Below, one piece after another: positions 1-57,549 of a DNA stretch of 64,000 bases. Below the pieces are notes generated by a model. It did not search any database. It was not told the DNA's origin and worked only from the letters and a program-made list of their open reading frames with translations. Positions within the stretch are counted from its first letter, which is position 1, and every line of letters starts with the position of its first letter. The DNA comes from a virus, in the IMG/VR virus record IMGVR_UViG_3300035698_024657, positions 66,255 through 130,254 of that record. One strand, 5' to 3'. The position numbers and the translations under genes are program-made.

Positions 1-477
1 ACCATGAACGGTTACCTTTAGGTCCGCAATATCACTATCTTCGACTACTCTGCGAAAATCTGCACGAATGTCTAAATCATAATTAGTGAACCCAATAGAT
101 TGCGTAGATAAATTACCTTCAGCAATTAAATATGCTAATAAACGTACTTGATTTGAAGGTAATTTGCTTTTACCAAATATAGGAATTTCACGAGGAACTG
201 CAATACGGTCACCAATAGTTACAGATTGTAAAGGTTGCCAACCCCCTACGGTAAGTAGTGGATGGGTATGAGTAACTTCAATAATGCGTCCAGATGTAGT
301 CGTGACTTTAAATACTTCCTGTTTTCCCGAATGCATATAATTAGCGGGTTGTACAGTACGTAATTTGTTCCAATTATTAGATAAAGTCAAAACTTTACCT
401 TCTTGAGAATTAACGACATCTTGAATTGTGCGCAATGTACCGTCAGCCATTACTAATTGACTGTCAAATTTTACGCA
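1..477 (-). mobile_element. Intein with LAGLIDADG homing endonuclease in DnaB P-loop (partial)
   Basis: Immediately after GRTGAGK the protein reads CVKFDSQLVMADGTLRTIQDV (block A), SGRIIEVTHTHPLLT (block B, TxxH) and RLLAYLIAEGN (LAGLIDADG-like). Confidence 0.88.
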
Positions 478-1104
478 TTTACCTGCACCAGTTCGACCGA
501 TGATTAAGTATAATTGGCCTGCAAACATTCCACCCGTCAATTCGTCTATCTCTTTGATCCCATATTGTATTCCCTGATACTTTTCAGGATGTTGTTCTTT
601 GTCAATATAATGGCGTATCCGCTCATCAGGCTTATCAAAAACAGAAGTACGTTCAACAATAGAGGTAGTACTGGCAGTTAAAATTTGTTGCGCAATATTT
701 GATGCAATCTCAACAGGATCTATGTCTGCCTCAAGACCTGCGCCAATTTCTTTATACACTGAATACAATTTACGTTTTGCTGTATACTCCTTAAGTTCAT
801 CTATATAGTATTTGGAGTACTTATCTATTCCAAACGCGTGCAACTCTCCAAACAATAAAAGAATATCAGTTTTATTGTTTGGATCATGTTTAGACAGCCA
901 ACGATCTAAAATATTGCGATCAATAAGTTTGTAATATTTTCGATAGAACCTTTCAATAATCTCAAACATGTACTGATGCCGCGTATCATAAAAATCGGCA
1001 ACATTCATATTATTGATTTGCTGATTCAGTACATTTTCATCGAGTAAAAGAGCAGTAAGTACTTTTTTCTCTGTTACAGAATTATTGAATGTAGTTTCAG
1101 GCAT
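1..1104 (-). CDS. dnaB: Replicative DNA helicase DnaB-like, intein-containing (runs off left edge)
   Basis: Not in the ORF track; translated by hand from ATG at 1104: MPETTFNNSVTEKKVLTALLLDE...DFYDTRHQYMFEII (DnaB N-domain), then LTGGMFAGQLYLIIGRTGAGK (Walker A). Frame is open to position 1. Confidence 0.9.
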   Translation of the reverse strand, partial: MPETTFNNSVTEKKVLTALLLDENVLNQQINNMNVADFYDTRHQYMFEIIERFYRKYYKLIDRNILDRWLSKHDPNNKTDILLLFGELHAFGIDKYSKYYIDELKEYTAKRKLYSVYKEIGAGLEADIDPVEIASNIAQQILTASTTSIVERTSVFDKPDERIRHYIDKEQHPEKYQGIQYGIKEIDELTGGMFAGQLYLIIGRTGAGKCVKFDSQLVMADGTLRTIQDVVNSQEGKVLTLSNNWNKLRTVQPANYMHSGKQEVFKVTTTSGRIIEVTHTHPLLTVGGWQPLQSVTIGDRIAVPREIPIFGKSKLPSNQVRLLAYLIAEGNLSTQSIGFTNYDLDIRADFRRVVEDSDIADLKVTVHG

Positions 1105-1399
1105 TTGGTCCGTTTTCCCACCGTTTCAGTGCGGCCCATACATCAACTTCATCCGGACTATCATTGCACCCACTGGGACAAGTGGTAGCATGTGCCCACA
1201 TACGAATTACGGCCCAATATACAAGCTTCTTAGGCAACTTAAATGCTGCCCATAACCAAATAGTTTCATTGAAAAAGTTCTTGACATTTATACGCCCCAA
1301 CCATACATGATACGTTACTTGCCACCACATAGTAGGAGGTAAACAGTCCTCAAGGCCCAATGCTTTTTGAATTTTACGTTCTTTTCTACTAATCATCAT
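1097..1399 (-). CDS. Small protein with KExx(I/V)QxALG leader
   Basis: N-terminus MMISRKERKIQKALG; Trp-rich remainder; overlaps both neighbours. Confidence 0.75.
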   Translation of the reverse strand: MMISRKERKIQKALGLEDCLPPTMWWQVTYHVWLGRINVKNFFNETIWLWAAFKLPKKLVYWAVIRMWAHATTCPSGCNDSPDEVDVWAALKRWENGPNA

Positions 1400-1733
1400 A
1401 GTGATCCGTGCCGTGCTTTAATGCAGTTATTTCAAGTGTCCCGTTAAATTGGGGGTATTTTTCATTTACTGCAGTATTTAGTTTTGGTAATAGTTGACCA
1501 TAATACATCGCGTGCACTGTAAAATTCTCCTTAATAATGGTATGAGTAACATTAGTATTACCTCCACCCGGCATATGCGTGACTTTAGAGACCTCCCCAC
1601 CTTTCGATAATGCAACTGTGTTAATTATTCCGGTACCTGGTTCAGCCTCCGTCAGAGTAGCAGTCACGTAAACCACGTACTTTCTTGGATAAACCCCTAA
1701 CGCCTTTTGGACTGCAATTTCTTTCTCAGTCAT
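1389..1733 (-). CDS. Small protein with KExx(I/V)QxALG leader
   Basis: Likely start ATG 1733 (MTEKEIAVQKALGVYP), overlapping the dnaC-like stop. Confidence 0.75.
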   Translation of the reverse strand: MTEKEIAVQKALGVYPRKYVVYVTATLTEAEPGTGIINTVALSKGGEVSKVTHMPGGGNTNVTHTIIKENFTVHAMYYGQLLPKLNTAVNEKYPQFNGTLEITALKHGTDHYDD

Positions 1734-2514
1734 CGAAAAAGTCACTTTCTAGCTTCTCTAAAATTTGTGGGCGATAATTTCCTACGAAGATAATTTCGGT
1801 GAGGCGTTCCATGAACATTGCCGCAATCGTTTGCCCTACAGTGTGCTCGATATCTGCCTTAATTTCATTTGACGTAACGATTAAAGGCTTCTTGAAATAA
1901 TCACACCGTTTCTTAAATAAAGGTAATAACAATCTTTGCACATTGTCATTCTGATCCTGAAAGCCTTTGTCGATTTCATCAATTACTAAAAAGTCCATCT
2001 CTACGACTAACTTTGTCAAATCTTTACGGACATCGGGATCACGTAACGCCATAAATGCTTTATCAACTAAATCAGACATCAAAATGAAATACCCAGAGTA
2101 TCCACTTTTGAGTGCCTTCTTTAATACCAACGTGGCAAGAAAACTCTTCCCTGAACCATTTCCCCCTTGCATAAATAATCCGAATCCCGTTTCAAGCGCT
2201 TTTGCCTGTTGACGGTTATATAGCACGATACGTCTGAAATGTTCCGCGTTATCCTGCTTGAAACGCTCATCTATGTCTTGATATGACAATTCCCTAAAGG
2301 CAACAGGAATATTCGCATGTGCCAGCGTATAAGCATCATTGAACGCAGTTACACATGCGCACTTAGCAAACTTTTCAGCTTCTTCCTCACCTACAACCCG
2401 CGTACCTTTACAAATGGGACATGTATCACAGTATTTGCTCTTCATCGCAAGAACTTCATCTGCAGACACCTTAAATGCATCAGAATCAAATCGAAGGGGA
2501 ATCTTTTTAATCAT
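1726..2514 (-). CDS. DnaC/IstB-like AAA+ ATPase (helicase loader)
   Basis: CPICKG...CAC zinc motif, ANIP, Walker A GGNGSGKS, Walker B FLVIDEI, LIVTSN. Confidence 0.88.
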   Translation of the reverse strand: MIKKIPLRFDSDAFKVSADEVLAMKSKYCDTCPICKGTRVVGEEEAEKFAKCACVTAFNDAYTLAHANIPVAFRELSYQDIDERFKQDNAEHFRRIVLYNRQQAKALETGFGLFMQGGNGSGKSFLATLVLKKALKSGYSGYFILMSDLVDKAFMALRDPDVRKDLTKLVVEMDFLVIDEIDKGFQDQNDNVQRLLLPLFKKRCDYFKKPLIVTSNEIKADIEHTVGQTIAAMFMERLTEIIFVGNYRPQILEKLESDFFDD

Positions 2515-2529
2515 TCAAATCGCTTTACG

Positions 2530-3123
2530 TTAAAAGGCGTCCGCAATATCTTTATCGAGAGCTTTTGTACTCTTGGGCGTCTGTGCGGCAAGCTGCTTAA
2601 ATTTATCGGGATCAACAGGTTTTCTCGTCTTTGTCGTAGCTAACCATTGATACAACATAGTATCACTCGATATTAGCGGAATTGACGCAACAAATTTCTT
2701 ATTGAATTTCTTCGCGAACAACCATTCAATCATCTCTTTATACACTGCATTATCTTGAATCACTTCATGCATATTACGGAATTGACTAATACGGATTGCA
2801 AATACTTGCCACTGCTTCCCGTGAATATCAAATTCATGCGGATACTTTGCACTATACAAATTTTGGAAAAGCCTAAGAAAATGCTGTACGTTCCACGCCG
2901 TAATATCGGCATCCATATTAATCTTACTGCCTTTAGTATGTTTTACCACCAAACTTCTCTTTGGTGGATCATATACAGTGTCTGGTCTATTCTTAAGTTG
3001 CTTATTCTCTTGCTCCAACTCTTTATTATGTGCAGTAAGAGCAATTTTCTGGTGATTCAAAAAGTATATGGCTTTATCTACCTGAACTTCATCATCTCTA
3101 ACGAAAAAACGGACACATATCAT
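2530..3123 (-). CDS. Hypothetical protein, possible replication initiator partner
   Basis: 197-aa ORF directly upstream of the DnaC-like loader; function inferred from position only. Confidence 0.55.
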   Translation of the reverse strand: MICVRFFVRDDEVQVDKAIYFLNHQKIALTAHNKELEQENKQLKNRPDTVYDPPKRSLVVKHTKGSKINMDADITAWNVQHFLRLFQNLYSAKYPHEFDIHGKQWQVFAIRISQFRNMHEVIQDNAVYKEMIEWLFAKKFNKKFVASIPLISSDTMLYQWLATTKTRKPVDPDKFKQLAAQTPKSTKALDKDIADAF

Positions 3124-4592
3124 ACGGTAACTTCCTTATATGTTACTCGAAAACGTGATTCACTTTTATAAAGGCGTTCACGCTTTTTAGAATGTCTATG
3201 CAAATATTTATAAGGATCAATAAAATCCACTACAATTGCGTGGTCTTTTCCTTCAGAGGGTGTCATACATCGAAGACGTTGAAATACTTTGATCGCAGAT
3301 TCACCACCAGAAGCAATAATTGTTGCATCAAGTGAAGGAACGTCAATACCTTCGTCCCCAAGAGTTGTAATTAATGTAAGGAGTTGTCTACTTTTCAACT
3401 TACGCCAAAGTACCGCACGATCTTTTGACTTACTGTTGCTAAATCTTGCATTAGGAATAAGAGCTTCAAGAGCATTACCGTGATTAATCTTCGTAACTAA
3501 AATCATACAAGTCTTACCCTGCGCTTGTAAGCTGCGAGCAACTTTAACAATTGCAGCGTTCCTCAACTTATCGTCAACAATCGCTTGCTTATAAATAGTA
3601 GCATAAGCGGTCTTACCCTCAAACTGAATGACTTTAGGTAACTTGATCAGATGCACAGTTGGTCTCACAAGATAACCAGCATCAATCAGTTTACTATAAT
3701 CAATCTCATATATAATAGGTCCAAGTAACCCTTCCAGTAATCTTTCCGTATTATCTTCTCTAAAAGGTGTTCCCGAACAACCTAAAATATATTCGGCGGA
3801 ATACACCTTATTCTGCAAAATGTATTTATGAGTTGCACTAACTGCATGATGACATTCATCTACCCAAACAAATTTTGAGGTTTCCACTAATTGCTGTATC
3901 GCTAACTTTTTAGCGATCGCAGGAATTCGCTCCATCTGCTTTTTGGGAATTTTCTCTTTAATATCATATGCAGCCATTAACGATTGAATCGTCGAAACAG
4001 TTATAGGTTGAATATCACATTCACCGTCACCAATAAGGCCTACTTGTGCCTCGGGAAGAAATTGTTTAAACTTATCAACAGTTTGCCGTGCGACGTCGAT
4101 ACTTTGACATATACTCAATACTGGAAAAATTCCCAGTCGCTGAACCAACATAATTTCCATTAACGTTTTGCCGGAACGTGGGCGAGCCCAAATAATTCCG
4201 CGTTTCTTTTCATACGCAATATCTACTGCATCATCTTGGTACGGTCGGGGCTGTAAAATTAATCCAGGAATAGGTTGCTGCGGATACGCCATTCGATTAT
4301 CTTCAATACTATATGGAACTCCATACTGATTAAGCGCTTCCTCAACATATGGCAATAAGCCTGTGAGAAATTTACCCGTCTTTACACTAAATAAGTGATT
4401 CTTCCCGTCCCATTGTTCTTGAATGAACTTTTTATTGCTCATTGCCTTAATAAAATGACTATTATGTATCTCATAAGACAGAAGCGCATCAAGATAGCTC
4501 CATATTTCACGGAGACCTGGATGATCGACATCTTCAGGAACAAGTTGACTAAGAATAGTCTTAATTTCTAATCTTGCGATCCCGCCAACCAT
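3120..4592 (-). CDS. Superfamily 2 DNA helicase (UvsW/ResIII-like)
   Basis: PRPYQ Q-motif, RPRSGKT, VDECHH, GCSGTP, DEGIDVP, QRLR motifs. Confidence 0.9.
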   Translation of the reverse strand: MVGGIARLEIKTILSQLVPEDVDHPGLREIWSYLDALLSYEIHNSHFIKAMSNKKFIQEQWDGKNHLFSVKTGKFLTGLLPYVEEALNQYGVPYSIEDNRMAYPQQPIPGLILQPRPYQDDAVDIAYEKKRGIIWARPRSGKTLMEIMLVQRLGIFPVLSICQSIDVARQTVDKFKQFLPEAQVGLIGDGECDIQPITVSTIQSLMAAYDIKEKIPKKQMERIPAIAKKLAIQQLVETSKFVWVDECHHAVSATHKYILQNKVYSAEYILGCSGTPFREDNTERLLEGLLGPIIYEIDYSKLIDAGYLVRPTVHLIKLPKVIQFEGKTAYATIYKQAIVDDKLRNAAIVKVARSLQAQGKTCMILVTKINHGNALEALIPNARFSNSKSKDRAVLWRKLKSRQLLTLITTLGDEGIDVPSLDATIIASGGESAIKVFQRLRCMTPSEGKDHAIVVDFIDPYKYLHRHSKKRERLYKSESRFRVTYKEVTV

Positions 4593-4819
4593 GTGACCTT
4601 TCCTGTATCTTTATCTATAATCATATGTAAACTCGCATGGACATCTGCACGTTTATTCAAACGATGGACAATCCCATTAAATTGGTCATGTGCCTGACGT
4701 ATCGTAGTAGCATTCCTTTCATATATAGCATGATGAGTATATCCATTCATCCTAATATACCCTTCATATTTTCGAAATAAGCCTAATGCTCGTTGTATTT
4801 TTTCTTCTTTCTTATCCAT
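4568..4819 (-). CDS. Small protein with KExx(I/V)QxALG leader
   Basis: MDKKEEKIQRALGLF; third of a tandem trio. Confidence 0.75.
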   Translation of the reverse strand: MDKKEEKIQRALGLFRKYEGYIRMNGYTHHAIYERNATTIRQAHDQFNGIVHRLNKRADVHASLHMIIDKDTGKVTWLAGSQD

Positions 4820-4822
4820 TAG

Positions 4823-5011
4823 CTAATGATGGAAACACTGAATTGGATAATCTGGCAAACGGTGACAATCATGACAATAAAAAAGGACATCACAATTACT
4901 ATTTATTCGCGCATACATCTCATCTGCAGGATATGTTCTACCACAACAAGCGCACATATGTGTAGGATATGCTCCTAAAGCCTTTTGGACTTTTCTCTCT
5001 TTCTCATCCAT
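4823..5011 (-). CDS. Small zinc-ribbon protein with KExx(I/V)QxALG leader
   Basis: MDEKERKVQKALGAYP then CACC...CHDC; TAATG overlap with the upstream gene. Confidence 0.75.
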   Translation of the reverse strand: MDEKERKVQKALGAYPTHMCACCGRTYPADEMYARINSNCDVLFYCHDCHRLPDYPIQCFHH

Positions 5012-5232
5012 TATCTAAGCGGGCCTATGAAGGCCCCATCAGGCACACCATGTAATCTATCTGCGCATAGTTGCGCGGTGGCGCATAGTGTACAGAAGTA
5101 CATGCGCTTACAATGTACAGCGCTTTGGTATAACCACTTTTCATCAACAGTAAATATCTTTTTACAATTATCACAAAGGAATTCGGGCAACGTGCCCAAT
5201 GCTTTTTGGACGTCTTGCTCTTTCTTATTCAT
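5011..5232 (-). CDS. Small zinc-ribbon protein with KExx(I/V)QxALG leader
   Basis: MNKKEQDVQKALGTLP then CDNC...CTLC. Confidence 0.75.
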   Translation of the reverse strand: MNKKEQDVQKALGTLPEFLCDNCKKIFTVDEKWLYQSAVHCKRMYFCTLCATAQLCADRLHGVPDGAFIGPLR

Positions 5233-5800
5233 TTATACAATGTGGATAAGAAGAAATTATATGTGCAGGAGAACCTCCATATACATAACCCGGCAAAGTG
5301 TCTTGATTTACTACAGACTGGCTAAGTATCACACAATCCTCTCCAATAGTTACACCCGGATTGATTGTAATTAGTCCACCTTGTAACCACACCCGGTCTT
5401 TAAGGATCGTCTTTGCGTACTTATTAGGAAAGTGTGTATTCTTTACTTGAGGAACTCTACAAACATGTGACCAAATTTGGCAATTAAAGCCAATGCAGCA
5501 ATCCTCACCTATTTCAAGATCTCCAGTAGCGTCAAGTGAAGTATATTGCGCCACCCAGGAGTTTTCCCCAATCGTACAATCACCATGCCCGTGAATTGTT
5601 ACATGATTGTGAAGAGTAACATTATCTCCAATACGTACAGTACCTCCTACTGCAATACATACCCCATCTTCAATGCGCGCGTTATCACCAATAATCAGAC
5701 TCAACGGCTTACCAGAGTGTCCAGAAAATTTAACATCGGGACTTATACTGGAATGGAATCCGGCAGTATATGTGATAATAACATCGAAATTCTTACTCAT
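5225..5800 (-). CDS. Hexapeptide-repeat (left-handed beta-helix) sugar acyltransferase
   Basis: Repeats IGDNARI, IGDNVTL, IGENSWV, IGEDCCI; PGVTIGEDCVI...GGSPA C-terminus. Confidence 0.88.
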   Translation of the reverse strand: MSKNFDVIITYTAGFHSSISPDVKFSGHSGKPLSLIIGDNARIEDGVCIAVGGTVRIGDNVTLHNHVTIHGHGDCTIGENSWVAQYTSLDATGDLEIGEDCCIGFNCQIWSHVCRVPQVKNTHFPNKYAKTILKDRVWLQGGLITINPGVTIGEDCVILSQSVVNQDTLPGYVYGGSPAHIISSYPHCINE

Positions 5801-6905
5801 AAAATTCTTTCACGCTATCTGCAATATATTGAATATCAGCATCAGATACCCACCAGCCGCAAGGCAAGCAGATATGTCTTTCCATAAACGCCGTAACGCC
5901 GGGAAGGTCTACGGGATCTGCATGAAAACCGCTATACAAATCATTATTCACGTGCATCGCTGATGCATGAATACCTTTATCTCGTAAAAAAATTGTCAAC
6001 CCATCTCCTTTGTTGCCCACAAATGTAGATACCCATGCAGCCGATGGTCCCGTCCAAGATCTTTGAAGAATTCCATCGAGTGCCTTACTAAGACGTAAAT
6101 CATTCATGACATAAGTAGATAAACGCGCACTTAGATTGGGCGCAGTCATCTGAGCAATACCAATACATCCTGCGATGTTATTCATATGTGCTTTAAATCC
6201 AATCTCGGGTACATCACATGTCCAATCAATCTCGCCACTAGGAGTACGGAATCCATCTCTATCTGGCCCAAACCACTTCAACTTATTGGCCCGTGCCATA
6301 TCATCGGCATCTCTGAAAGCAATAGCGCCCCCGTCTCCCGTAGTTATATGCTTGATTGCTTGAAAAGAGAAACAGACGTAGTCACCATATCCACCGTCAC
6401 CTAAAATACCGCGGTGTGCATACATACTGAATGCCTGCGCCGCGTCAACAATAAGTTTGATCCCGTGCTCTTTACAAATTGCATCAATTTCCCGCAATGG
6501 CCCAAGATCTCCACCCCAACATACGTACATAAGAACTTTAATATCGGGATATTGTTCAATACGTTTAAGTAAAGTATCCGGAGAAATCATACCATGAATT
6601 GGATCGACATCAACCCACACGGGAGTTGCGCTAAGTGTTGCAATTGGCGTGTTAGTAGCGATACACGTCATGGGAGTAGAAAATACTTTACTGCCTGCCT
6701 CAACGCCTGCTAGCCGGAGTGAAATTTGTAAGCTACTGGTACACGAATTAGTAGTCAGCACTTTATCATTATGTAAATGGGCACGAAGACATTTTTCGAA
6801 CGCCTTAACGCTTTCTCCTTCAGCAACGTAACCGCTTTGTAGTACTTCACCCATTTTATCTACAGCGTTCTCCGGAACATAAACCTTAAACAAAGGAATC
6901 ATCAT
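5793..6905 (-). CDS. DegT/DnrJ/EryC1/StrS family PLP sugar aminotransferase
   Basis: TNSCTSSL, IVDAAQA, FSFQAIKHITTGDGG (PLP lysine). Confidence 0.93.
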   Translation of the reverse strand: MMIPLFKVYVPENAVDKMGEVLQSGYVAEGESVKAFEKCLRAHLHNDKVLTTNSCTSSLQISLRLAGVEAGSKVFSTPMTCIATNTPIATLSATPVWVDVDPIHGMISPDTLLKRIEQYPDIKVLMYVCWGGDLGPLREIDAICKEHGIKLIVDAAQAFSMYAHRGILGDGGYGDYVCFSFQAIKHITTGDGGAIAFRDADDMARANKLKWFGPDRDGFRTPSGEIDWTCDVPEIGFKAHMNNIAGCIGIAQMTAPNLSARLSTYVMNDLRLSKALDGILQRSWTGPSAAWVSTFVGNKGDGLTIFLRDKGIHASAMHVNNDLYSGFHADPVDLPGVTAFMERHICLPCGWWVSDADIQYIADSVKEFYE

Positions 6906-6914
6906 ATTCTCCTA

Positions 6915-7841
6915 TTAATACATTTCTTCAATACCCATTTGAATATTACATACCTGCAGTTTTAAATCTTTTTCCGCATTGACGTTATATGCAATCATTT
7001 GTATAGCGTCTGATGTTTTTATGAACCCTGACGCAATGATAATAGCTTTATGCGGAGAATTATCGGCACACCACATATTTAGTTTACTCCATCCATGATG
7101 GGATCCCAAAGACATTGCAGATAATAACAATTTAAGTATTTCGGGTTCCTCCAAAGCAACTATATGTGCCCAATCCCCGTATTGTTTTAATACTGCATAA
7201 CCTTCCGCAGCCCCCGCTAGTACAATCGGGATATAATGATGCTGTGGATGATACGTCCACCGAGTATGTTGCCATTTATAAAATGTACCAGGTACCTTTT
7301 TATGTTTATACATAAGGTATGCTGAATTTTCTGCTGGACCCATAAATGTACGAAATGCAGGACTATTTTCGGTAAGAAATCTGGCATTAGAACATTCATA
7401 TACATCGATCTCCTGCACAGGATACCATCCTGCACTAAAGTGCCCCTTAAGTACGGTGCGTCCCCGTTGAGGGAAACCTACAATATATTCATATTCCCCT
7501 AATTCCCTCTCAGACTGTAGAGCAAATTTACTAAGTGCCTTAAATAATCCAAGCTGTCTATGATCTTTTTGTATACCTACGGCAAAACATCTACCAACGT
7601 TGATAGGTTCATCGGAAATGCACAATTTACGAGGTTCTACCCCCCAAATACCTACTAGAATATCATCACAAAATGCTCCGTATATACGAACCTTGCCGCA
7701 ATGCACAGTGGTGAACCACCAGTCAATCCATCTGAAGGATATATCGCTCGTGACAAATAGTTTATTGTGTAGATTTCTATACTCTATCAAATCCTTTGAC
7801 ATGTCAAGTAAACGGAACTTAGGCAAGATGTAAACCTCCAT
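6915..7841 (-). CDS. GNAT family N-acyltransferase
   Basis: AVGIQKDHRQLGLFKAL acyl-CoA binding motif, IVGFP. Confidence 0.75.
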   Translation of the reverse strand: MEVYILPKFRLLDMSKDLIEYRNLHNKLFVTSDISFRWIDWWFTTVHCGKVRIYGAFCDDILVGIWGVEPRKLCISDEPINVGRCFAVGIQKDHRQLGLFKALSKFALQSERELGEYEYIVGFPQRGRTVLKGHFSAGWYPVQEIDVYECSNARFLTENSPAFRTFMGPAENSAYLMYKHKKVPGTFYKWQHTRWTYHPQHHYIPIVLAGAAEGYAVLKQYGDWAHIVALEEPEILKLLLSAMSLGSHHGWSKLNMWCADNSPHKAIIIASGFIKTSDAIQMIAYNVNAEKDLKLQVCNIQMGIEEMY

Positions 7842-8514
7842 TCAAATGAAGGGTTTGACCTGCCATATAAGGAGTGTCTATCAAGAAATCGATAGAATTC
7901 ATAACTTCCTTAAAATTCCCGAACCTACCCAATGGAATAGTCTTCTTCAACGCAGTCTGATGTTCTTCAGGAACTTTTTCAATCATACCATATTCAGTAT
8001 AACCTAAACCAATCCCAAATGGTAAAATATTATGTCTGACTCCTTCAGGGAGTAATCCTCTTACCATGCCTTCCATTGCCGACTTAGTTACACTATACCC
8101 TAAAGCGCCAAAAACTGGGCGATGCGCAACGACAGAGCTTACGAAAATAAGTCTGCCATACCGTTGTTCTTTCATCCTGGGCCACAACCTACTAACGATC
8201 TCTAATACGCCGGTACAATTTACCTTGAACTGTTGGTGCAAGTCAGCAAAAGATAGTGTACTCATAGAAGCATTTACAGTAAGACCTGCTAAATGGATAA
8301 GATTAATGGGGGCATTCTTCATAAGCGCAGTATTTAGAAGAGGATCAGCAAATATTGCAGGACCATTAGATAAATCGTATTTAATAAGGTGTGCCCCTTC
8401 TAAACTACCAGGATAGTTTGAACCATATAATCCTATAACTACTTCGTCACGTTTTAACAATTCTGCAACGACTCTTTTACCAATTCCCCCTGATGCGCCA
8501 GTGACTAAATACAT
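7819..8514 (-). CDS. SDR oxidoreductase, FabG/PhaB-like
   Basis: VTGASGGIG, FVSSV, YSVTK (YxxxK), IPLGRFG, GQTLHLNGG. Confidence 0.88.
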   Translation of the reverse strand: MYLVTGASGGIGKRVVAELLKRDEVVIGLYGSNYPGSLEGAHLIKYDLSNGPAIFADPLLNTALMKNAPINLIHLAGLTVNASMSTLSFADLHQQFKVNCTGVLEIVSRLWPRMKEQRYGRLIFVSSVVAHRPVFGALGYSVTKSAMEGMVRGLLPEGVRHNILPFGIGLGYTEYGMIEKVPEEHQTALKKTIPLGRFGNFKEVMNSIDFLIDTPYMAGQTLHLNGGLHLA

Positions 8515-8523
8515 AATTTTCCT

Positions 8524-8757
8524 TTACCAGATCTCGAGATCGTGTGAACCGCAATTACTACAATATATTAGACTACCATCAATAGTTGCGGCCGGCTCAC
8601 CTTCAGTAGTATTCAATATCGTATGCGTAGTGGCACAAACCGAAGGCACACAGGTAGTTAATATTCTCCCGCAATTACTACACCATACAGCTTCCATCGA
8701 ACCAAGTGCACACTGTATCTTCATTTCTTTGATATTCAGCGTGATTCTACTTCCCAA
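8524..8757 (-). CDS. Small zinc-ribbon protein with KExx(I/V)QxALG leader
   Basis: LNIKEMKIQCALGSM then CSNCG...CSNCGS; start uncertain (TTG 8757, CTG 8739 or ATG 8787). Confidence 0.65.
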   Translation of the reverse strand: MGSRITLNIKEMKIQCALGSMEAVWCSNCGRILTTCVPSVCATTHTILNTTEGEPAATIDGSLIYCSNCGSHDLEIW

Positions 8758-9200
8758 TACTCTGGGTGATCTTTCATCGGACCCCATCTCTTATCATCCT
8801 CTATACTTGCTTCAACTGTCACATTCGATACTCCAATCATAAGGGTATCATCAGTAAGCGTTTGCCATGCATTGGCATAGTTTGCAGGAACATACAATGC
8901 TTTAGGAATATTTCCAGACAACGTAAACTTCTCAGGCTTCCAGGTACTGCCTGGCTGAGTTAGCATCATACCCTCAGGAAGTAAAACAAACTTAATTCCC
9001 CCCTTCAAACAGATAAATATTTTTGCTTCATACTTATGGTGATGGAATCCTCGCACAGTACCTGTTTGAAAGTTATCACATACATAAACTCGCTTACCCC
9101 AAAAATCGAAATCAGGTAATTGGAGAGGAATATTCGTAAAATGTCCTCTATCATCTACGAACAGTTCTCGGTCAAACAATTGTGCTTTCATCTTATCCAT
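8736..9200 (-). CDS. Cupin sugar epimerase/isomerase (RmlC/FdtA/WxcM-like)
   Basis: DDRGHF, KRVY, VRGFHHH, ALYVPANYANAWQTL; start moved to ATG 9200 (AAGGA RBS). Confidence 0.85.
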   Translation of the reverse strand: MDKMKAQLFDRELFVDDRGHFTNIPLQLPDFDFWGKRVYVCDNFQTGTVRGFHHHKYEAKIFICLKGGIKFVLLPEGMMLTQPGSTWKPEKFTLSGNIPKALYVPANYANAWQTLTDDTLMIGVSNVTVEASIEDDKRWGPMKDHPEYWEVESR

Positions 9201-10134
9201 GATTTTCCTTAAACTGGAGAGTTGATATATTAGAATACTTGATGTGTGAAAAGTCTTTAATGCGTCCTTCACGATAAATGCGAGCAATATCTTTTACAGT
9301 GTCACATATAGAGAATTTTGGCTTAAACTTTAACTGTTGCTTTGCCTTTTCTCCCGATGCTTTATAATTTCGCCGATCTTCAAACTCTATTTCAGTAACG
9401 TCAATTTTAACCGTAGGAATCACTTCTTGAACAATATTAGCGAGATCAATAATCTTGTAGTTACGTTCAAGCAGATTAAAAGTACCTGGACACATCGCAA
9501 AACTTTGCTGCACCAAAACTTCTGCCAAATCTCTTACATGAAGCATAGGCCGATACTGTTCGCCGCCAAATACTGATATCCTACCTTCAATAAGGGCACG
9601 GATCGCCAAAATATTAACCACTAAATCGTTACGTAGTCTCCCCGTTACTCCATGAACGGTACCTAACCTGGAAATGAAGACTTGTGGTTTACCTTTCAAA
9701 ATCTCTTCGGCACGTATTTTAGTCTCGGCGTAGAGGGACAATGGGTTAAGAGGAGATTCTTCAGTTACGAGATCATTATTTGCACCGTATACTGAACACG
9801 ATGACGGAAAAATGAGTCTACCTTCAAAATGGTCACGTAAGATCTTAACTGATGTAATATTCGCCACCTCGGTCTCATGCGGACGGGCAGCGCAAGCAGC
9901 ATCGCCAACAATTCCTGCTAAATGTATCACTACATCTGGTTGAAACTTCTTCAAAAGGGGTACCATAAACTTTGAATCGCCTACGTTACCTGCCTGAAAG
10001 GGGATATTTCGGAGATAATTATCCTCGTACAGAAGATTGTCCACTACTAAGACGTCGTGCGTCCCTAAAGTGTTTAATATATCGACGACAGCGTGCCCTA
10101 CAAGGCCAGCCCCCCCTGAAATGAGGATGCGCAT
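9193..10134 (-). CDS. NAD-dependent sugar epimerase/dehydratase
   Basis: ISGGAGLVG, HLAGIVGD, SSCSVYG, YAETK, RLGTVHG. Confidence 0.92.
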   Translation of the reverse strand: MRILISGGAGLVGHAVVDILNTLGTHDVLVVDNLLYEDNYLRNIPFQAGNVGDSKFMVPLLKKFQPDVVIHLAGIVGDAACAARPHETEVANITSVKILRDHFEGRLIFPSSCSVYGANNDLVTEESPLNPLSLYAETKIRAEEILKGKPQVFISRLGTVHGVTGRLRNDLVVNILAIRALIEGRISVFGGEQYRPMLHVRDLAEVLVQQSFAMCPGTFNLLERNYKIIDLANIVQEVIPTVKIDVTEIEFEDRRNYKASGEKAKQQLKFKPKFSICDTVKDIARIYREGRIKDFSHIKYSNISTLQFKENHG

Positions 10135-10712
10135 TATTTGCCCCCTTTACGATGTTTTGCAGATTCAGACATTTTTCGTCGGGTTTTGGCAGACATTTTC
10201 TTACCTTTCCAATAAGCTAATTTAGGATTACCTTTCATTGTCCTTTTAATCTTCTCTACCGTCGCTGAAGAAGGTTTTCGCCCTTTCAACGTGGCACTAA
10301 TCTGGGCACGTTGAACCAAGGACATAAGTTTACCATAATTAGGATTTTTCTTCCCTTTAAATTTCCCCTTTAAACTATTACTAATTTTTCGACGAGTCTC
10401 TTCAGAAGGTAATGGACTTGCACCTCCCGAAGATAAATTACAAAGGGGACCTTTTCCCTGATCTCGTCTACCTACAACGCCTATGAATAATTCCTCGTAA
10501 ACAAGTGCATCAATTTCACTAACATTTTTAAGAGGAAAGTCAATTTTTACATTTTCGATACCAATTTTTCTAATTTTATTCTGCAAAAATGGATTACTTC
10601 TACCCCTGCCTAAATGGTCCCAGATTTTATACCTATGCCCGTGACCTTTGCCCACATAGAAAGGTACCCCAGTACAATCCGTGTATACGTATACATAAAA
10701 ATCGGTTGTCAT
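10134..10712 (-). CDS. Free-standing GIY-YIG family homing endonuclease with NUMOD3 repeats
   Basis: FYVYVY...PFYVGKG...R, GPLCNLSSGG, then SEETRRKIS / KNPNYGK / SAKTRRKMSES repeats. Confidence 0.85.
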   Translation of the reverse strand: MTTDFYVYVYTDCTGVPFYVGKGHGHRYKIWDHLGRGRSNPFLQNKIRKIGIENVKIDFPLKNVSEIDALVYEELFIGVVGRRDQGKGPLCNLSSGGASPLPSEETRRKISNSLKGKFKGKKNPNYGKLMSLVQRAQISATLKGRKPSSATVEKIKRTMKGNPKLAYWKGKKMSAKTRRKMSESAKHRKGGK

Positions 10713-10722
10713 ATATTTATTC

Positions 10723-11667
10723 CTATTTAGGTAAAAGCCCTTCCGCTATTAATAGATTTTTTACTTCTTCACGCGATGCAAATGGTCCATCAGCAGAATC
10801 ATAGCCATCTACCATTTCTTCGCCCAACTTCTCACTTTCGAACGCCCCAATTATTTCGACAGTTCCTCCAGTATGTTCCGCAAAAATGTTCGCGATGTCT
10901 ATAATCCGGATAGATGGTAATTCGGGAATACTAAATATTCCCCTATCTACTGAGTGGACTGGGGGTGATGCTATTACAAAATTACCGAATATTGGAACTA
11001 CGCTACGATACTCCAAACTATCAGTAACGGTACGCATAATCAAACCAATAGCCTGAGGGAATGTGGTAAAGAATCTCGTCATCCTTTCGTCGGTCACCGG
11101 AAAAACGGGATTTTTTTCGTTCAATTTATCTCGATACAATGGAATCAGCGACCCCGCAGAATTGAGAATATTACCGTAGCGTACACCAACAAATTTCGTC
11201 TTACTTGCTTTATGTGCCGCATTCGCCCATATCTGTTCGGCGATATTTTTCGTCATTCCATAAAGAGTTCGTGGAGCAACGGCCTTATCAGTCGACACAA
11301 AACATGCAGAAGCAACGTCGTTTGCTAAACATGCACGAGTTATGTTCTTAGTTCCGATAATATTCGTCTGTACTGTCTGCATAGGATTATGTTCACAGAT
11401 CTTAACATGTTTTTGCGCAGCGGTGTGTACGACTACATGCGGCTTATAATGTGCAATCGCATCCATCACACTTTGTAAATCACGTACATCGCCCAATACA
11501 AACTTTACGTTATCCTCTCCAGCATACTTCAATGCCATTTTATACTGTTTCTGTTCGTCACGAGAAAACACTATAAACTGATGAAGAGATCCGGTCGTCT
11601 TATGTAAGAAGTCAATCAAATACGAACCAAGACTACCTGTTCCACCTGTTACGAAAATGCGTGCCAT
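10723..11667 (-). CDS. UDP-GlcNAc 4,6-dehydratase-like (PseB/CapE/FlaA1, Polysacc_synt_2)
   Basis: VTGGTGSLG, FSRDEQKQ, GDVRD, HTAAQKHV, STDKAV, YGMTK, VRYGNI, TDERMTRF. Confidence 0.92.
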   Translation of the reverse strand: MARIFVTGGTGSLGSYLIDFLHKTTGSLHQFIVFSRDEQKQYKMALKYAGEDNVKFVLGDVRDLQSVMDAIAHYKPHVVVHTAAQKHVKICEHNPMQTVQTNIIGTKNITRACLANDVASACFVSTDKAVAPRTLYGMTKNIAEQIWANAAHKASKTKFVGVRYGNILNSAGSLIPLYRDKLNEKNPVFPVTDERMTRFFTTFPQAIGLIMRTVTDSLEYRSVVPIFGNFVIASPPVHSVDRGIFSIPELPSIRIIDIANIFAEHTGGTVEIIGAFESEKLGEEMVDGYDSADGPFASREEVKNLLIAEGLLPK

Positions 11668-12504
11668 CTATTTATTTCCTCCGCATGGACGACCCTTACC
11701 TATTTTTCCTGCTTTTATCATAGCGTCCTGAAGCCGCACATGATTTGCGCTACCTGTAACATTATCTCCATTAACACTGAAACTATTCTTTGAACAAAAC
11801 CAACCATACCAATTCAATAGCCTTCCGCCTCTATACCCTGCAAAGAGTATCCTATCTCCAAACAATCCTTCAGGATTCTCAGGAGATTTAATACTTCCAT
11901 GCTTAATATCTTTACCTGTAGGAAAACCTACATTTTTAGCTACGTCAGTCTTAGATATCATACCCCCCATAGACACAAGTATGCCGTAAGCGTAACAATG
12001 TTCCCCATCGTTCACGACACCTCCGCCATATTTAGGATGTACCCAACCTGGCCAGGATTCACTAAATTCGGGCCGTTGTAAATTACCTGTCAACCCGTAT
12101 AGATTGCCTTTCTTTCGTAAAAGTTTGATTGACTCAACAAACCATTCATGTGGATCACAAAGTGTTTCCCAGTCATCTTCCAAATTGATAAAGTAAGCTG
12201 TATCAGTTGCATCTAAAAGTGCTTGTGCAGTATCCCCCCAATATGTCCAGGGTTCAATCATTAACTTATGTACATTGGGAACAGTTTTCAAGTACTCAAT
12301 ACACTCAGCCGACTTCAACAAGGGTGTGTTGTAATATTGTAAGGACTCCTCTGTAGGCACTGACTCAAAAATAATAAACTGCCAATTCGGATAAGTATTG
12401 TGTTCTACAAATGATTCAATATCCCGTTTAACTAAATCATGGCGACCTGTACTTGTAAGCCATATAGATATCTTAGGATAATCAAAGTCTTCAATCAGAT
12501 CCAT
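11668..12504 (-). CDS. GT-A fold glycosyltransferase-like, paralog 3
   Basis: YPKISIWLTSTGR, INLEDDW; start moved to ATG 12504 (AAGGAG RBS). Confidence 0.75.
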   Translation of the reverse strand: MDLIEDFDYPKISIWLTSTGRHDLVKRDIESFVEHNTYPNWQFIIFESVPTEESLQYYNTPLLKSAECIEYLKTVPNVHKLMIEPWTYWGDTAQALLDATDTAYFINLEDDWETLCDPHEWFVESIKLLRKKGNLYGLTGNLQRPEFSESWPGWVHPKYGGGVVNDGEHCYAYGILVSMGGMISKTDVAKNVGFPTGKDIKHGSIKSPENPEGLFGDRILFAGYRGGRLLNWYGWFCSKNSFSVNGDNVTGSANHVRLQDAMIKAGKIGKGRPCGGNK

Positions 12505-20196: not shown

Positions 20197-21180
20197 TTAC
20201 AACCTTTTCTTAATTTCGTCTATAAATCCCGCAGTAATCTTATCTATGTTGTAATTCTCAAGTACGTACTGTCTTCCCTTGGTCGCAATTTCCTCTCTTT
20301 GACGAGGGTTACTGAGGAAGAACGCGATCTTCTCTACTAAGTCGGGATAATCCATAGGGGAATAGGTAACACAGTGTTCCCCAGCGGTTAAGACCTCATC
20401 AAAATAGGGAATATCTGGTGTAATCAGGCAACAACCCGAACCGGCAGTTTTGAGGACTCTGTTTGAGAAACCTAACTCGTATTGAGGTAATAAATCATTG
20501 ACAAAATTCAACCCAACTCTCGCACGAGAGTAAAATTTTGCCATCTCACCGCCTATTAAAATCCCATTGCTAAAGAAATGTGTATTTGGAATCTTCTCTT
20601 GATAGTCACCCCAGTGAAAAGATCCCCCACCAACCTGAACATTATGTCCATCGGTGATCAACTGAGATAGAAACTTTAATCTAACAGTCGATTGAGCGGG
20701 ATTAGGTCCACCAAGAAAACCAACATCAAATGAGTACTGCCCGCGACGTTCGATACACGTATGATATCGATGATCGAAGAATTGAGGAACCCAGATAACA
20801 TCTTTAGCATACTCCTTAAGTATTGGTACAAGGCCACGAGTTTCTAACATCAGTAAATCATAGATACCTTTGATCCCTTTGAACCATGCCCCCGACTGCC
20901 CATCATCGGGACCGTATTCATCGGGAATCCACTGTGCTAAAAATATTCCCGCGTCTTTCAAAGGTTGCAAAAGGGTATGATCAAAGTTCCTACCCATAGT
21001 AACAAGACAAAACTCTGGACGGTGCTTCAAAATTTGAGCAATTGAGTCACTGGTATGCGCAGTCAACTTATTAAAAGATACCATCTGAACGGAATGATGT
21101 TGAATTGTCCATGATTGTGCAATTCTTATACTATTCTGCGACGCATCCTCATCACAATAACCAATTACAGTTATTCGCAT
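20197..21180 (-). CDS. CgeB-type glycosyltransferase (Glyco_trans_1_2)
   Basis: [33 protein letters not shown]. Confidence 0.85.
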
Positions 21181-22163
21181 ACTTTTTCAAATACCCTCTG
21201 CCACTCTTTTATAAACCTTATAGGGCCAAAGAACTCGCGCACTACCTGTCGAGCACTGTCGGCCATCAACCGTGACTTCAATGAGGATTGTGACGACAAT
21301 GCAGCAGTAATTCCATCCCGAAGTTCTATCGGGTCATTACTAAATACGCCGTGCATACCAGATTTAAAAATATTACCTGGTTCACAATAAGCAGTAGATA
21401 CTATTGGAGTACCTACAGCAGCGGCTTCCAACAAAGACATCGGAATAGGTGACATTATTGATGGATTAAAATACACTCCCGCATTCACTAATAGATCAAG
21501 GATTTCTTCACGTGGTCGGGCACCTTTAGAAAACTTGCCAATATTATCATTCCCATAACCATATAGTGAAATATTATCAAAATGGGGTTCAGCAGAAACA
21601 CCAAGTACATTCGCCCAAAGCGTAAAGCCACAAGCCCAGTCTCTGGTGATCATCTCATTTGTAGTCGTCATAATCTCGGTACCGGAATAATCTGTCTTTT
21701 GGGGAAATGCGTCGACATCAAATGAATGATAGATATACGAAGAATTTTCATCCCTTTCCATATCCCACGCTTTTTGCGACGTAGGGGTAATAAATACATT
21801 ATGCGTAAGATACTGATGCCTTATATTTTTCCACTTATTCACTTCACCCGGATAATTTTTAAATGGCCAAGTATGCTCAAGCATAACTGCAGGAAGATAC
21901 TTACCCCAAGAAGAACAAAAAGTCTCAATAAATGGGTGCCAATGAATTAACATTAAATCAAAATCATCGGGATTTACTCCGGCAGCCTCAATACCGTGAA
22001 TATTATCAGGTATTTTAGCACTTCCGGGCCATACGCTTTTTGGTCTTTTATCTTCTGGCCAAAAGCCATGTGAATCTATGACATGAAAAAATTCTACCAT
22101 TGGAATCTTTGCTAATTCCAATTGATAGCTTTCATGCGCGAAATGGGTTAAAACGCGTAGCAT
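21171..22163 (-). CDS. Glycosyltransferase family 4-like
   Basis: [25 protein letters not shown]. Confidence 0.85.
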
Positions 22164-43144: not shown

Positions 43145-45153
43145 TATATATTATCCGATTGGTGGGGCCTTGCAGGTGACCCAAGTATTTCTTGTTTTGA
43201 CGTAGTTTTAGTTGCAATATTTCCTGGATCTGCATTTAAGGCGTCTGCGGACATTTTTCCGGGAATACTATAATCTAAAATTTCAGGTAAAATTTCCCAA
43301 GGTTTTCGACCATACTTTAACTGTAAAGTAGTTGTAAACGTCTGCCCATACGTAAATTTATGGCTAATCTCAGTAATGTAATACACCATATTACGCATTG
43401 GAATATATATGGGCATATGTACACGCAATTCCGGTCTACCGAGAATAGTAACCGAACCAACGAACCGCGCAGAATTGACACGAGTCATCCAAGATTTCGC
43501 GAAATAGAAACAGTCTTTAGCTTGAGTAATATAAGGATGACTTATACTAAGCATTCTTCTACCGTACTTCCGCAACAAACTATTATCCTCGTAAAACCCA
43601 GTCATTTTTAAAATTTGTGGTGCATTTTCTACATAATTTGGTTGTCCTGCAACATAGACACTGGTTACGACATCCTTATCGCTTTCGGTAAATTGATGTG
43701 ATATCATATCATCTTCGCGAATAATATATATTTCAGGATCAGGATGCGTCAAAATATGGTAATTATCGAAACGGGGTTGGTGATACCAAAGATCCCCAAA
43801 CTGATCAGCATAAAACTCATAATTCGATAACTGCGCAACTTCGTTAGCGATTTCAAGATGACTGCGATATTCATTTTGCCAGTTTTGAAAAGATGCACCA
43901 AAAATTGTTTTATATACAGATAAATCCCGCAGTCCCTTTGCAGCAACGTCAAACGGTAAAACTTGAATATGCACACGACCCGGAGAAAAGAACAAATTGT
44001 CTAGTTTATCTCCAGCAGACCCCGATGGAAGCCAGTCACCTGCCTGAAATTTTAACCCAGAAATTACTGCTTGCTTTTCTACAGTTTTACCATCAACACT
44101 GTTACTTGGATCATATTCCGCGTTATATACAAAATGTCCCGTACCATAAACATTAAGGTTTTCTGCATCATCACCGCCCAATACAAGAGTCTTAATGATC
44201 TCCCAGCCCTGTTGCCCGGAAAATCTATTTTGCCATATCTTATATTGGCCACCTTCAGGAAGGCCGGATTCAAAAAGCGACGGATTTACATTAGCCTGAG
44301 TAACGTTCATAATTTTTGAAACGTCTGAACCCTGGATCCGTAGCATATTTGTCTTACCATCGAATTCGTCACTAACACTATCTACAAAACCGGTAAACGC
44401 AACAATCATATCATCGGGATCATTTTTAGACTTAAAGCGACGGGTCAATAAACAAACCATCAACTGCATCGGCATAAAAACACAACGACCATTTTCTAAT
44501 TGTCCGCCATATTTTTCAAAAAACGCAGATTGTTTTTCTACATTCTTCAATAACTCCTTAACCTCTGTAGCACTAAGCGTCTGAATATTCTTATTAAAAC
44601 GTTCCGCATCAGACTCCTTACCCTGGGTATCGGAAACTTTTGCAGCACCCGCACTATTAGCATCTTTCGGATACAATTTGTATTTATAGTCAGTACCATC
44701 AGTATATAATATGCTCATTAAACCATCACTCTCTTCGGAAGAAGGATGATGGCGCACACGTTGAATTACTTCAGTATTCAAAAAATCTTGTGCATTCTCC
44801 CAAGTGGGCGTAGCGGCCGCGTCGGCAATCTCAACCTTTTTACCATCGACGGAACTCGTAAACCTTCCAGCTACGCCAGACTTCAAATTTGAAATTTCTG
44901 CCACCATATCGTCAGAAACAAAATACTTATTATTTGTGTTAGTTAGCGAAACATTAAATTGACCAATTTTTCCAGTACTTCCGAGGGAAAGTTGTAACGC
45001 AGTAATATCACTAATATCGGGAATAGTAGTAAATGCACTATTTAGGCTACGAATAGGATCACCGTTTGAGTCTATTGAAATGAATATCAAAAGAGCTTCA
45101 GGATAGAAATTCTGTATAGACTGGTCATCAATATGTTGGGTCGCTTTACTCAT
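43144..45153 (-). CDS. Baseplate hub (gp27/gpD-like)
   Basis: FTGFVDSV, YEFYADQFGDL, ILGRPELR, YYITEISHKF, FTTTLQL. Confidence 0.75.
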   Translation of the reverse strand: MSKATQHIDDQSIQNFYPEALLIFISIDSNGDPIRSLNSAFTTIPDISDITALQLSLGSTGKIGQFNVSLTNTNNKYFVSDDMVAEISNLKSGVAGRFTSSVDGKKVEIADAAATPTWENAQDFLNTEVIQRVRHHPSSEESDGLMSILYTDGTDYKYKLYPKDANSAGAAKVSDTQGKESDAERFNKNIQTLSATEVKELLKNVEKQSAFFEKYGGQLENGRCVFMPMQLMVCLLTRRFKSKNDPDDMIVAFTGFVDSVSDEFDGKTNMLRIQGSDVSKIMNVTQANVNPSLFESGLPEGGQYKIWQNRFSGQQGWEIIKTLVLGGDDAENLNVYGTGHFVYNAEYDPSNSVDGKTVEKQAVISGLKFQAGDWLPSGSAGDKLDNLFFSPGRVHIQVLPFDVAAKGLRDLSVYKTIFGASFQNWQNEYRSHLEIANEVAQLSNYEFYADQFGDLWYHQPRFDNYHILTHPDPEIYIIREDDMISHQFTESDKDVVTSVYVAGQPNYVENAPQILKMTGFYEDNSLLRKYGRRMLSISHPYITQAKDCFYFAKSWMTRVNSARFVGSVTILGRPELRVHMPIYIPMRNMVYYITEISHKFTYGQTFTTTLQLKYGRKPWEILPEILDYSIPGKMSADALNADPGNIATKTTSKQEILGSPARPHQSDNI

Positions 45154-46135: not shown

Positions 46136-46144
46136 TTCTCTCTC

Positions 46145-55183: not shown

Positions 55184-55309
55184 TATCTACTTTCCTTTTC
55201 TACTATAAAAGTAGACGTGAAACTGGTTGTATCCACTTCCACATCTAATTTATTGGTGGTTAGTATTGTATTACTATCCATAACAATCAACTTATATTAA
55301 AGTTAAGTC

Positions 55310-57493: not shown

Positions 57494-57523
57494 TTATCGC
57501 AACCGTCCTTTTATCATCTTTTA

Positions 57524-57549
57524 TGGAGGGGGAAGTTATTCCCCCTCCA
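57524..57549 (-). terminator. Stem-loop downstream of major capsid gene
   Basis: Perfect 11-bp inverted repeat tggagggggaa-gtta-ttccccctcca; no U-tract on the coding strand, so termination is uncertain. Confidence 0.55.

Follow-up and report, generated by a model that had tools for sequence, protein, structure and literature searches.

Six tagged genes at the left end of the window

The stretch of DNA analysed here (the window, 64,000 nucleotides) is the right half, positions 66,255 to 130,254, of G000, a viral contig of 130,254 bases that is estimated to be 75% complete (IMG/VR record IMGVR_UViG_3300035698_024657). In window positions 1-12000, every gene lies on the minus strand. Among these genes are six small open reading frames (ORFs) whose products have a short peptide in common, KE-x-x-(I/V)-Q-x-ALG, called the tag below. 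A first-pass annotation had taken this peptide for an N-terminal leader of otherwise unrelated proteins and had likened it to the capsid-targeting sequence (CTS) of phage T4. All six ORFs were recovered, with the peptides as quoted in that annotation:

1097-1399, minus strand: tagged ORF of 100 residues with a Trp-rich ORFan cargo; tag at 1349-1393
1389-1733, minus strand: tagged ORF of 114 residues, counted from ATG at 1733, with an ORFan cargo; tag at 1689-1733
4568-4819, minus strand: tagged ORF of 83 residues with an ORFan cargo; tag at 4775-4819
4823-5011, minus strand: tagged ORF of 62 residues with a zinc-ribbon-like CxxC...CxxC cargo; tag at 4967-5011
5011-5232, minus strand: tagged ORF of 73 residues with a CxxC...CxxC cargo; tag at 5188-5232
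8524-8787, minus strand: tagged ORF of 77 residues (from TTG at 8757) or 87 residues (from ATG at 8787) with a CxxC...CxxC cargo; tag at 8695-8739

A look-up of RNA records for window positions 1000-9000 yielded no entry. In the six-frame translation of the window, the pattern KE..[IV]Q.ALG is found six times, and its core, Q.ALG, is also found six times, at the identical six sites. When 60 mononucleotide and 60 triplet-block shuffles of the window were used as a control, the full motif was seen in none of the 120, while the core was present 0.5-0.8 times on average and three times at most. KE-x-x-(I/V)-Q-x-ALG begins 3 to 20 residues past the likeliest start of the six ORFs. The sixth ORF exists as annotated, but its start is ambiguous (TTG at 8757 or ATG at 8787), which places the tag 9-19 residues from the beginning of the protein; an alternative GTG start at 1745 is possible for the 114-residue ORF.

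Beyond the tag, the proteins are mostly unrelated, as the first-pass annotation had held: once the tag was removed, no mutual BLASTP similarity was detected among the six, the best-scoring pair (E = 0.083) being two of the CxxC proteins. None of the six belongs to a Pfam or PHROGs family. Two CxxC pairs are present in each of the products of 4823-5011, 5011-5232, and 8524-8787, and Pfam zinc-ribbon matches were obtained for 8524-8757 only, below the curated cut-offs (best E-value 1.8e-4; 21.9 bits versus 29.1). No Pfam match to LRV repeats (PF01816), the family to which many tagged proteins elsewhere belong, was found in the six at E-values up to 1, and a profile of the LRV body, built from 61 tagged LRV proteins, matched five other G000 ORFs and none of the six.

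Sequence and predicted structure of the tag

The core of the motif is as originally described, but its true span is longer, from -3 to +11 relative to the conserved K (position 0): hydrophobic-(T/S)-x-K-E-x-x-(I/V)-Q-x-A-L-G-(T/S)-hydrophobic, 15 residues in all. Over 40 copies, the pattern is a hydrophobic residue or the start Met at -3, T/S at -2, K at 0 (35/40), E at 1, I/V at 4, Q at 5, A at 7, L at 8 (35/40), G at 9, T/S at 10, and a hydrophobic residue at 11. In helix chemistry, T/S-x-x-E is known as the capping box and a hydrophobic residue ahead of the cap as the "staple", and Gly with a hydrophobic residue after it acts as a C-cap. Read in these terms, the tag would form a short amphipathic helix of ca. 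10 residues, capped at both ends. AlphaFold2 modelling of a tagged LRV protein (61-row alignment) predicted a helix at residues 3-12 with a predicted local distance difference test score (pLDDT) of 94.8, the tag being the first helix of a compact five-helix fold; in a model of a second family the helix was placed at residues 70-79 (pLDDT ca. 91-94), between two strands. A Foldseek search of the PDB with the LRV-tag model returned nothing at E <= 0.001, and VIA-align of the second-family model returned rows that were mostly winged-helix proteins, with Z of 4.4 at best, which is a hint only.

On a helical wheel the conserved residues are located on one side, with positions -1, 2, 3, and 6 opposite. 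The conserved positions are identical in every cargo class compared, i.e., LRV proteins, KG-repeat proteins, the "LPLW" family, zinc ribbons, and 58 others, while positions -1, 2, and 6 are class-specific. Position 6, for example, is hydrophobic in 87% of LRV proteins, 10% of LPLW-family proteins, and 14% of zinc ribbons, and position 2 is K in all 11 of the KG-repeat proteins. A cargo-independent face combined with a cargo-dependent one is the arrangement that a shared, trans-acting surface predicts.

The codon triplets for ALG in the six window ORFs vary synonymously, all six being as listed by the first-pass annotation, and the same is true on a larger scale. Codons at the conserved positions are used approximately as in the genome (GCA/GCT/GCG/GCC, 19/11/7/3; each of the four Gly codons 8-12 times), and the DNA upstream of the tag is not conserved. 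We therefore conclude that selection acts on the peptide and that the tag is not a DNA repeat. No named family could be assigned to it in Pfam, in PHROGs, or among PDB sequences; a profile of 124 tagged N-termini run against 177,635 PDB sequences gave no match at E-values up to 10.

The phages that carry the tag

G000 and a second viral contig, G002 (59,461 bases), begin with the same 127 bases in opposite orientation, which looks like an assembler overlap. Gene order in a related contig, G006, puts the far end of G002 beside the far end of G000. Because of the end overlap and this synteny, G000 and G002 are probably parts of one genome of ca. 190 kb. A structural module is common to G000 and the related contigs G001, G003, and G006, with protein identities of 50-94%; the major capsid protein (81-94% identical) and the portal (ca. 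69-81%) are among the most conserved proteins of the group. Matches to the major capsid protein include that of Bacillus phage G (37.5% identity), the others being from large uncultured or soil phages. The phages are an uncultured clade of large myovirus-like phages. A megablast search with window positions 1-9000 against cultured phages gave no match.

Several other features of these genomes were recorded. A 1330-residue protein encoded beside the capsid genes (window 59173-63165, minus strand) matches head maturation proteases at residues 152-210 only and is conserved in G001, G003, and G006. The chaperonins Cpn60 and Cpn10, a classic AAA ATPase, and a peptide deformylase are also encoded (G000 57401-59074; G002 44773-45066, 45857-47251, and 55233-55820). 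Three paralogous genes for proteins of 190-240 residues (window 10134-10712 and 55310-56035; G000 20600-21286), with copies in G001-G003 as well, are inserted in the sugar, structural, and early regions and look, by eye, like GIY-YIG homing endonucleases.

Number and distribution of tags

The first-pass annotation predicted that a scan of the genome and its relatives would reveal many more copies, and it did. A regular expression found 17 copies in G000, and a degenerate DNA pattern found 13, with none for the reversed control. With a tag profile based on 38 copies (positions -3 to +12), a search of all six-frame segments at a threshold of at least 7.5 bits detected 18 copies in G000, 21 in G002, 12 in G003, and 2 in G001, the next scores being 6.4 and 4.6, and G006 was found to contain 18 copies at 8.4 bits or more. 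The tagged genes are thus not restricted to three spots, as had been supposed: the G000 contig as a whole contains 18 copies. G000 and G002 together contain 39 copies and, by a loose expression, 35 of their 287 ORFs of at least 50 residues (12%) are tagged.

Outside this group, the pattern was absent from the nearest named relatives, phage G, LR745208, Tunturi_5, and Rctr197k (0 matches in 1.49 Mb). A scan of 185,579 bacterial and archaeal species, each represented by one genome, gave 11 isolated matches, none of them clustered and few near an ORF start. From the information content of the pattern we estimate that ca. 13 matches would be expected by chance, so there is no enrichment. Metagenome contigs were scanned with a pattern that required T at -2 and T/S at +10 but no start codon. 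The 80 stretches analysed (270,203 bases), out of at least 118, contained 239 copies that scored 9 bits or higher. All loci but one (79/80) had at least one copy and 60 had at least two, often in tandem arrays of small genes. A search of 1.84 billion representative proteins with the profile of 124 tagged N-termini, which is biased towards LRV carriers, gave 284 matches at E-values up to 0.001; among the best 150 of these, the top match began within the first eight residues in 139. A tblastn search of 50,697 cultured-phage records with one tagged LRV protein revealed a single LRV protein, from Moorella phage MTATph1, which has no tag, and a word-index protein search with the tagged LRV protein P0001 returned P0001 itself and nothing else. 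We conclude that the tag is restricted to one phage lineage, which is widespread in the environment.

Position of the tag within proteins

The tag is not strictly an N-terminal leader, as the first-pass annotation had it, since C-terminal and internal copies also exist. A start codon is located exactly three codons before the K in 183 of the 239 metagenome copies (ATG in 161, TTG in 18, GTG in 4), and within 30 residues in a further 19. Another 24 copies are no more than 40 residues from the C-terminus of a longer ORF, and 10 are internal. The tag is N-terminal in most carriers but, in contrast to a T4-type CTS, is not at the extreme N-terminus of every one. The remaining three metagenome copies have no canonical upstream start (ATA or TTT at -3), and in a tagged CxxC ORF at G000 ca. 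21,750-22,120 (minus strand; K codon at 22048) the stretch from the preceding stop to the tag is devoid of ATG, GTG, and TTG. Such copies may reflect non-canonical starts or decayed genes.

In two adjacent paralogues of G000 with long hydrophobic stretches, the tag is 7-8 residues from the C-terminus; by eye these read as membrane proteins, and neither has a Pfam match. Some C-terminal tags, in zinc ribbons and in membrane proteins, leave just two or three residues past the Gly. A family of 17 proteins carries the tag ca. 20 residues from the end, always between two predicted strands.

Carrier proteins

The complete N-terminally tagged cargos, 150 in number, fell into 48 BLAST clusters, with 61, 16, and 11 members in the largest, several smaller ones, and 33 singletons. 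The cluster of 61 consists of LRV proteins. The idea of a constant peptide on variable, unrelated cargo was thus borne out, both for the six window proteins and over the 48 clusters. The opposite possibility, that the tagged proteins are just one paralogous family, applies to a part of the carriers overall (LRV, ca. 40%) but not to the proteins of the window. A set of 137 proteins left by a crude LRV filter gave six LRV and five HEAT matches in Pfam and otherwise single matches. Tagged proteins are small and rather basic (median length 105 residues, the longest being 226-265; median isoelectric point 9.0, compared with 7.9 for untagged ORFs of up to 140 residues).

One carrier is a DnaG-type primase core of 239 residues (DNAG_N and Toprim domains) with an N-terminal tag (G000:C1:46081-46800, i.e., L080:6081-6800, minus strand), for which Pfam reports no zinc-binding or helicase-binding domain. 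With several tagged zinc ribbons encoded in the same genome, a split primase is conceivable. Another (G003 5096-5893, L058, minus strand) combines in a single ORF a NADAR domain (Pfam E-value 2.6e-24), the tag, and an LRV-like part, in that order. NADAR enzymes are known from counter-defence against DarT-type DNA ADP-ribosylation.

Some arrangements of tagged genes recur. The library proteins P0003, P0004, and P0005 consist of two tandem units of tag plus LRV repeats, each starting with M-T-x-K-E, and represent either genes fused in frame or read-through in the gene calls. In G001, G002, G003, and G006 alike, a conserved tagged LRV gene and a small zinc-ribbon gene come after the AAA gene. A gene trio (G000 768-2576, locus L078; also L090, L104, L117, and others), conserved in six to eight sources, codes for a tagged zinc ribbon, a 330-residue LRV/HEAT-like protein with a basic tail, and an acidic protein of 79 residues. 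The conserved 330-residue LRV-like protein (G000 1078-2073) opens with a diverged version of the tag helix, K-Q-L-x-V-E-L-A-V-G.

Genomic context of tagged genes

In the window the tagged ORFs adjoin replication genes. ORF 1097-1399, which has a weak homologue, G003_10046, overlaps the start of the DnaB helicase gene (1104) and the neighbouring tagged ORF. ORF 1389-1733, for which no relative among viral contigs was detected in the locus search, overlaps the 3' end of an IstB-like ATPase gene (1726-2514), and ORF 4568-4819 overlaps the start of a ResIII/SNF2 helicase gene (3120-4592); the ESM Atlas gave no feature match for the 83-residue product of the latter ORF, and its structural neighbours were uninformative. 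The sole homologue found for the 73-residue protein (5011-5232) is in G006, in a different neighbourhood. ORF 8524-8787 is located within a sugar-modification operon. The DnaB gene itself (window 1-1104; G000 64611-67358) contains an intein (Pfam DnaB N-domain and Intein_splicing) and codes for 915 residues, compared with 464 for the G006 orthologue.

The core genes of G000 and G006 are alike (helicase, a 197-residue gene, IstB-like ATPase, DnaB), and tagged genes interrupt them at different junctions with different cargos. Because both slots and cargos differ between these syntenic contigs, the tagged genes behave as exchangeable accessory cassettes. No tag was found in the structural and glycan part of G000 (75-130 kb; 0 of 18 tags) or in the structural block of G006 (21-58 kb; 0 of 18). 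No fusion of the tag to a head protein was seen, and the tag profile revealed no tag-like or protease-site-like motif in structural proteins.

Eight tagged genes of G002 and G003 are directly behind sites that resemble σ70 promoters by consensus match only (TTGAC-like, ca. 17 bases, (T/G)GTATAAT), which suggests that tagged genes may be expressed early. Extended -10-like boxes (TGTATAAT) are also present before tagged genes of G003 (L058; 8601/8614, 10354/10366, and 11714/11726) and end just 5-6 bases ahead of the start codons; transcripts from such boxes would be leaderless or nearly so. Another sequence, (G/A)ACTATATTA, recurs in intergenic DNA (window 63634, i.e., G000 129888, minus strand; G003 29526; several G002 sites), and in G000 and G003 is located immediately upstream of the structural module; a sigma factor of the phage's own may use it as a promoter.

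Comparison with known systems

The T4 CTS is a real precedent for capsid targeting of internal proteins (PMC3012670). Like the CTS of IPI-III and Alt, the tag is a short conserved terminal peptide of a large myovirus, its carriers are small, highly diverse accessory or defence proteins, many of them basic, and the carrier genes are located outside the head gene cluster. Many tags, compared by eye, have a T-x-x-E-F start in common with the 10-residue CTS string; in strings this short, no real similarity is apparent beyond the capping box. The CTS is found exclusively at the N-terminus of a handful of proteins, from which the prohead protease cleaves it. The tag, in contrast, may also be C-terminal or internal and is found on ca. 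39 proteins per genome, membrane-like proteins and a primase core among them. Many of the tagged genes follow σ70-like promoter sites.

Encapsulin cargo-loading peptides, which are short, mostly C-terminal, and sometimes N-terminal, dock unrelated cargo inside an HK97-fold shell. Their G-(S/T)-hydrophobic core resembles the ...A-L-G-(T/S)-L of the tag, but they bind in an extended form, whereas the tag is a predicted capped helix. Hub-binding short linear motifs, such as clamp-binding ones, and the MIX marker domains of polymorphic effectors are cases in which one terminal motif recruits unrelated proteins. The tag is similar to them in being one short terminal motif common to many otherwise unrelated proteins; unlike them, it misfits the clamp-binding consensus, and it is found on phage ORFans, not on established replication or toxin proteins. 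LRV solenoids are the commonest carriers, and the tag is modelled as their first helix; however, it is not part of the Pfam LRV repeat, the LRV protein of MTATph1 lacks it, and the six window proteins are not LRV proteins. The tag may be classed with the shared terminal address peptides of diverse phage accessory proteins, among which its scale, positional freedom, and helix design are unusual. We found no published description of it in a narrow literature search.

Possible function of the tag

The motif and its placement, its conservation at the peptide level, its confinement to one lineage, and the diversity of its cargos are established here; the capped amphipathic helix, the role of the invariant face as a binding surface, early expression, and a single partner are what we infer. 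We tentatively propose, with a probability of ca. 0.4, that the tag is a portable docking helix for one shared partner. The face formed by K0, E1, I/V4, Q5, A7, L8, and the hydrophobic residue at 11 would be the common handle. The clade would attach this helix to a free end, or occasionally to an exposed loop, of ca. 40 rapidly exchanged accessory proteins per genome, and all tagged proteins would thereby have one conserved binding partner in the infected cell, probably at an early stage of infection. We favour docking because the same face is invariant in every cargo class while the opposite face is class-specific; because the tag is always placed where it would be accessible, at termini, in membrane-like tails, or between strands; because the cargo is diverse (48 clusters, 33 singletons, a primase core, a NADAR fusion); and because of the peptide-level selection, the exchangeable cassettes, the eight promoter-linked genes, and the large, lineage-restricted scale of the phenomenon.

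Several observations weigh against this proposal. Approximately 40% of the carriers (61/150) are one family, LRV. The weaker copies show Q replaced by E, H, or Y, A by V, and G by N, and the near-invariance of the tag is inflated by ascertainment, the copies having been found by motif or profile. AlphaFold2 confidently places the tag helix inside the fold in both the LRV and the second family; the invariant face may therefore be buried in cis, which would favour a purely structural role. The promoters are consensus matches, and the window region has fewer of them than shuffles give. No partner was found by any approach used. A search for a hub by co-occurrence across 84 sources, which are short fragments, yielded only mobile endonucleases and the 330-residue LRV-like family and was uninformative. 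Prediction of a complex between the 330-residue protein (7-row alignment) and the tagged zinc ribbon of G000 768-1064, its conserved neighbour (5-row alignment), run without controls, scored 0.00 against a mark of 0.32, a result that counts neither for nor against binding.

A structural role is the alternative that we take most seriously, although we consider it doubtful. The helix would be the N-terminal capping helix of a phage LRV family and would have no shared partner; new genes would have arisen by fusion of foreign or de novo sequence behind, and occasionally ahead of, the helix segment, which would be kept as a very stable element that packs on the hydrophobic surface of each protein. 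The prominence of LRV proteins as the largest carrier class agrees with this, as do the position of the tag as helix 3-12 of the five-helix LRV model, the confidently modelled helix of the second family, the diverged helix with which the 330-residue LRV-like protein opens, and the existence of in-frame tandem tag-LRV proteins; furthermore, intrinsic helix capping could account for K, E, T, and G. A purely structural helix, however, ought to become fitted to whichever body it is attached to, which is seen for the opposite face only; the conserved face is invariant on zinc ribbons, membrane-like tails, the primase core, and beta-rich ORFans. C-terminal tags that end two or three residues past the Gly, moreover, have little body to cap. 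Capsid loading, in which the tag would dock cargo onto the scaffold, the shell interior, or the portal for packaging and injection, as the T4 CTS does, gained no support from the analysis, and we consider it unlikely. The small size and basic character of the tagged proteins would suit it, the highly conserved major capsid protein or portal could offer an invariant site, and the head gene set includes the 1330-residue protein with a maturation-protease domain. Our low rating reflects the promoter sites ahead of the eight tagged genes, the nature of some carriers (two strongly hydrophobic proteins and a replication primase core), the C-terminal and internal copies, which do not fit a cleaved N-terminal leader, and the lack of any link to head genes: the structural parts of G000 and G006 are free of tags, no head-protein fusion was seen among carriers that reach 226-265 residues at the longest, and no protease-site-like motif was found in the structural proteins.

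It is improbable that the tag is a degron or timer, recognized by a host or phage AAA+ unfoldase or protease that clears early accessory proteins. Unfoldase tags are typically found at either free terminus, as is this one, and all four genomes that cover the region (G001, G002, G003, and G006) encode a classic AAA protein (PF00004) adjoining a conserved tagged LRV gene. Nothing found here links that AAA protein to the tag, however; the tag appears as a well-capped, stable helix rather than an unstructured tail, internal copies are located between secondary-structure elements, and a degron would make the primase and many LRV proteins unstable. Readings in which the tag is a DNA- or RNA-level element (repeat, promoter, or translation signal) that happens to be translated, or the cleaved leader of a ribosomally synthesized and post-translationally modified peptide (RiPP), are close to refuted, and we assign them a very small chance. 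Certain codons are somewhat enriched within the tag (AAA, 86% versus 63%; CAA, 78% versus 63%), and some tagged genes start 5-6 bases past a -10-like box. Against an element of this kind, third codon positions vary freely, upstream DNA is not conserved, copies occur at C-termini and inside proteins, and reversed-pattern controls gave no matches. The cargos, for their part, are folded domains of 40-190 residues rather than the short cores of RiPPs, and no maturase was noticed beside tagged genes, adjacency not having been systematically tested.

Four further candidates were considered and set aside. The consensus of beta-clamp-binding motifs does not fit the tag (no clamp gene was looked for); the spacing of an excisionase- or MerR-type helix-turn-helix fragment is off by two residues; a Shine-Dalgarno sequence with an alternative start inside the tag is argued against by the conserved ATG at -3 and by the C-terminal copies; and a substrate motif for the phage peptide deformylase would leave the C-terminal copies unexplained.

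The docking-helix proposal can be taken further, to a plug-and-play recruitment system in which a universal capped-helix handle docks ca. 40 fast-turnover accessory proteins per genome onto one conserved hub; in this extended form we regard it as speculative and rather unlikely. The carriers would include solenoids, zinc ribbons, DNA-binding-like modules, and the primase core, and the C-terminally tagged membrane proteins would hold the hub at the membrane. Such a hub, not seen before, would organize early infection or, alternatively, capsid cargo.

If docking is what the tag does, more than one-tenth of the genes of a large phage are addressed to one partner, which would be a node central to infection that has so far escaped notice, and the tag may be used as bait to fish it out. 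Reuse of 15 codons would then allow phages of this clade to connect new genes to an interaction network that is already in place. The tag could also flag the accessory genes of the clade, which probably function in host takeover or counter-defence, in metagenomes where annotation finds nothing. Even if the helix is a structural cap, it would reveal that genes can arise in an unusual way, around a terminal segment that they have in common.

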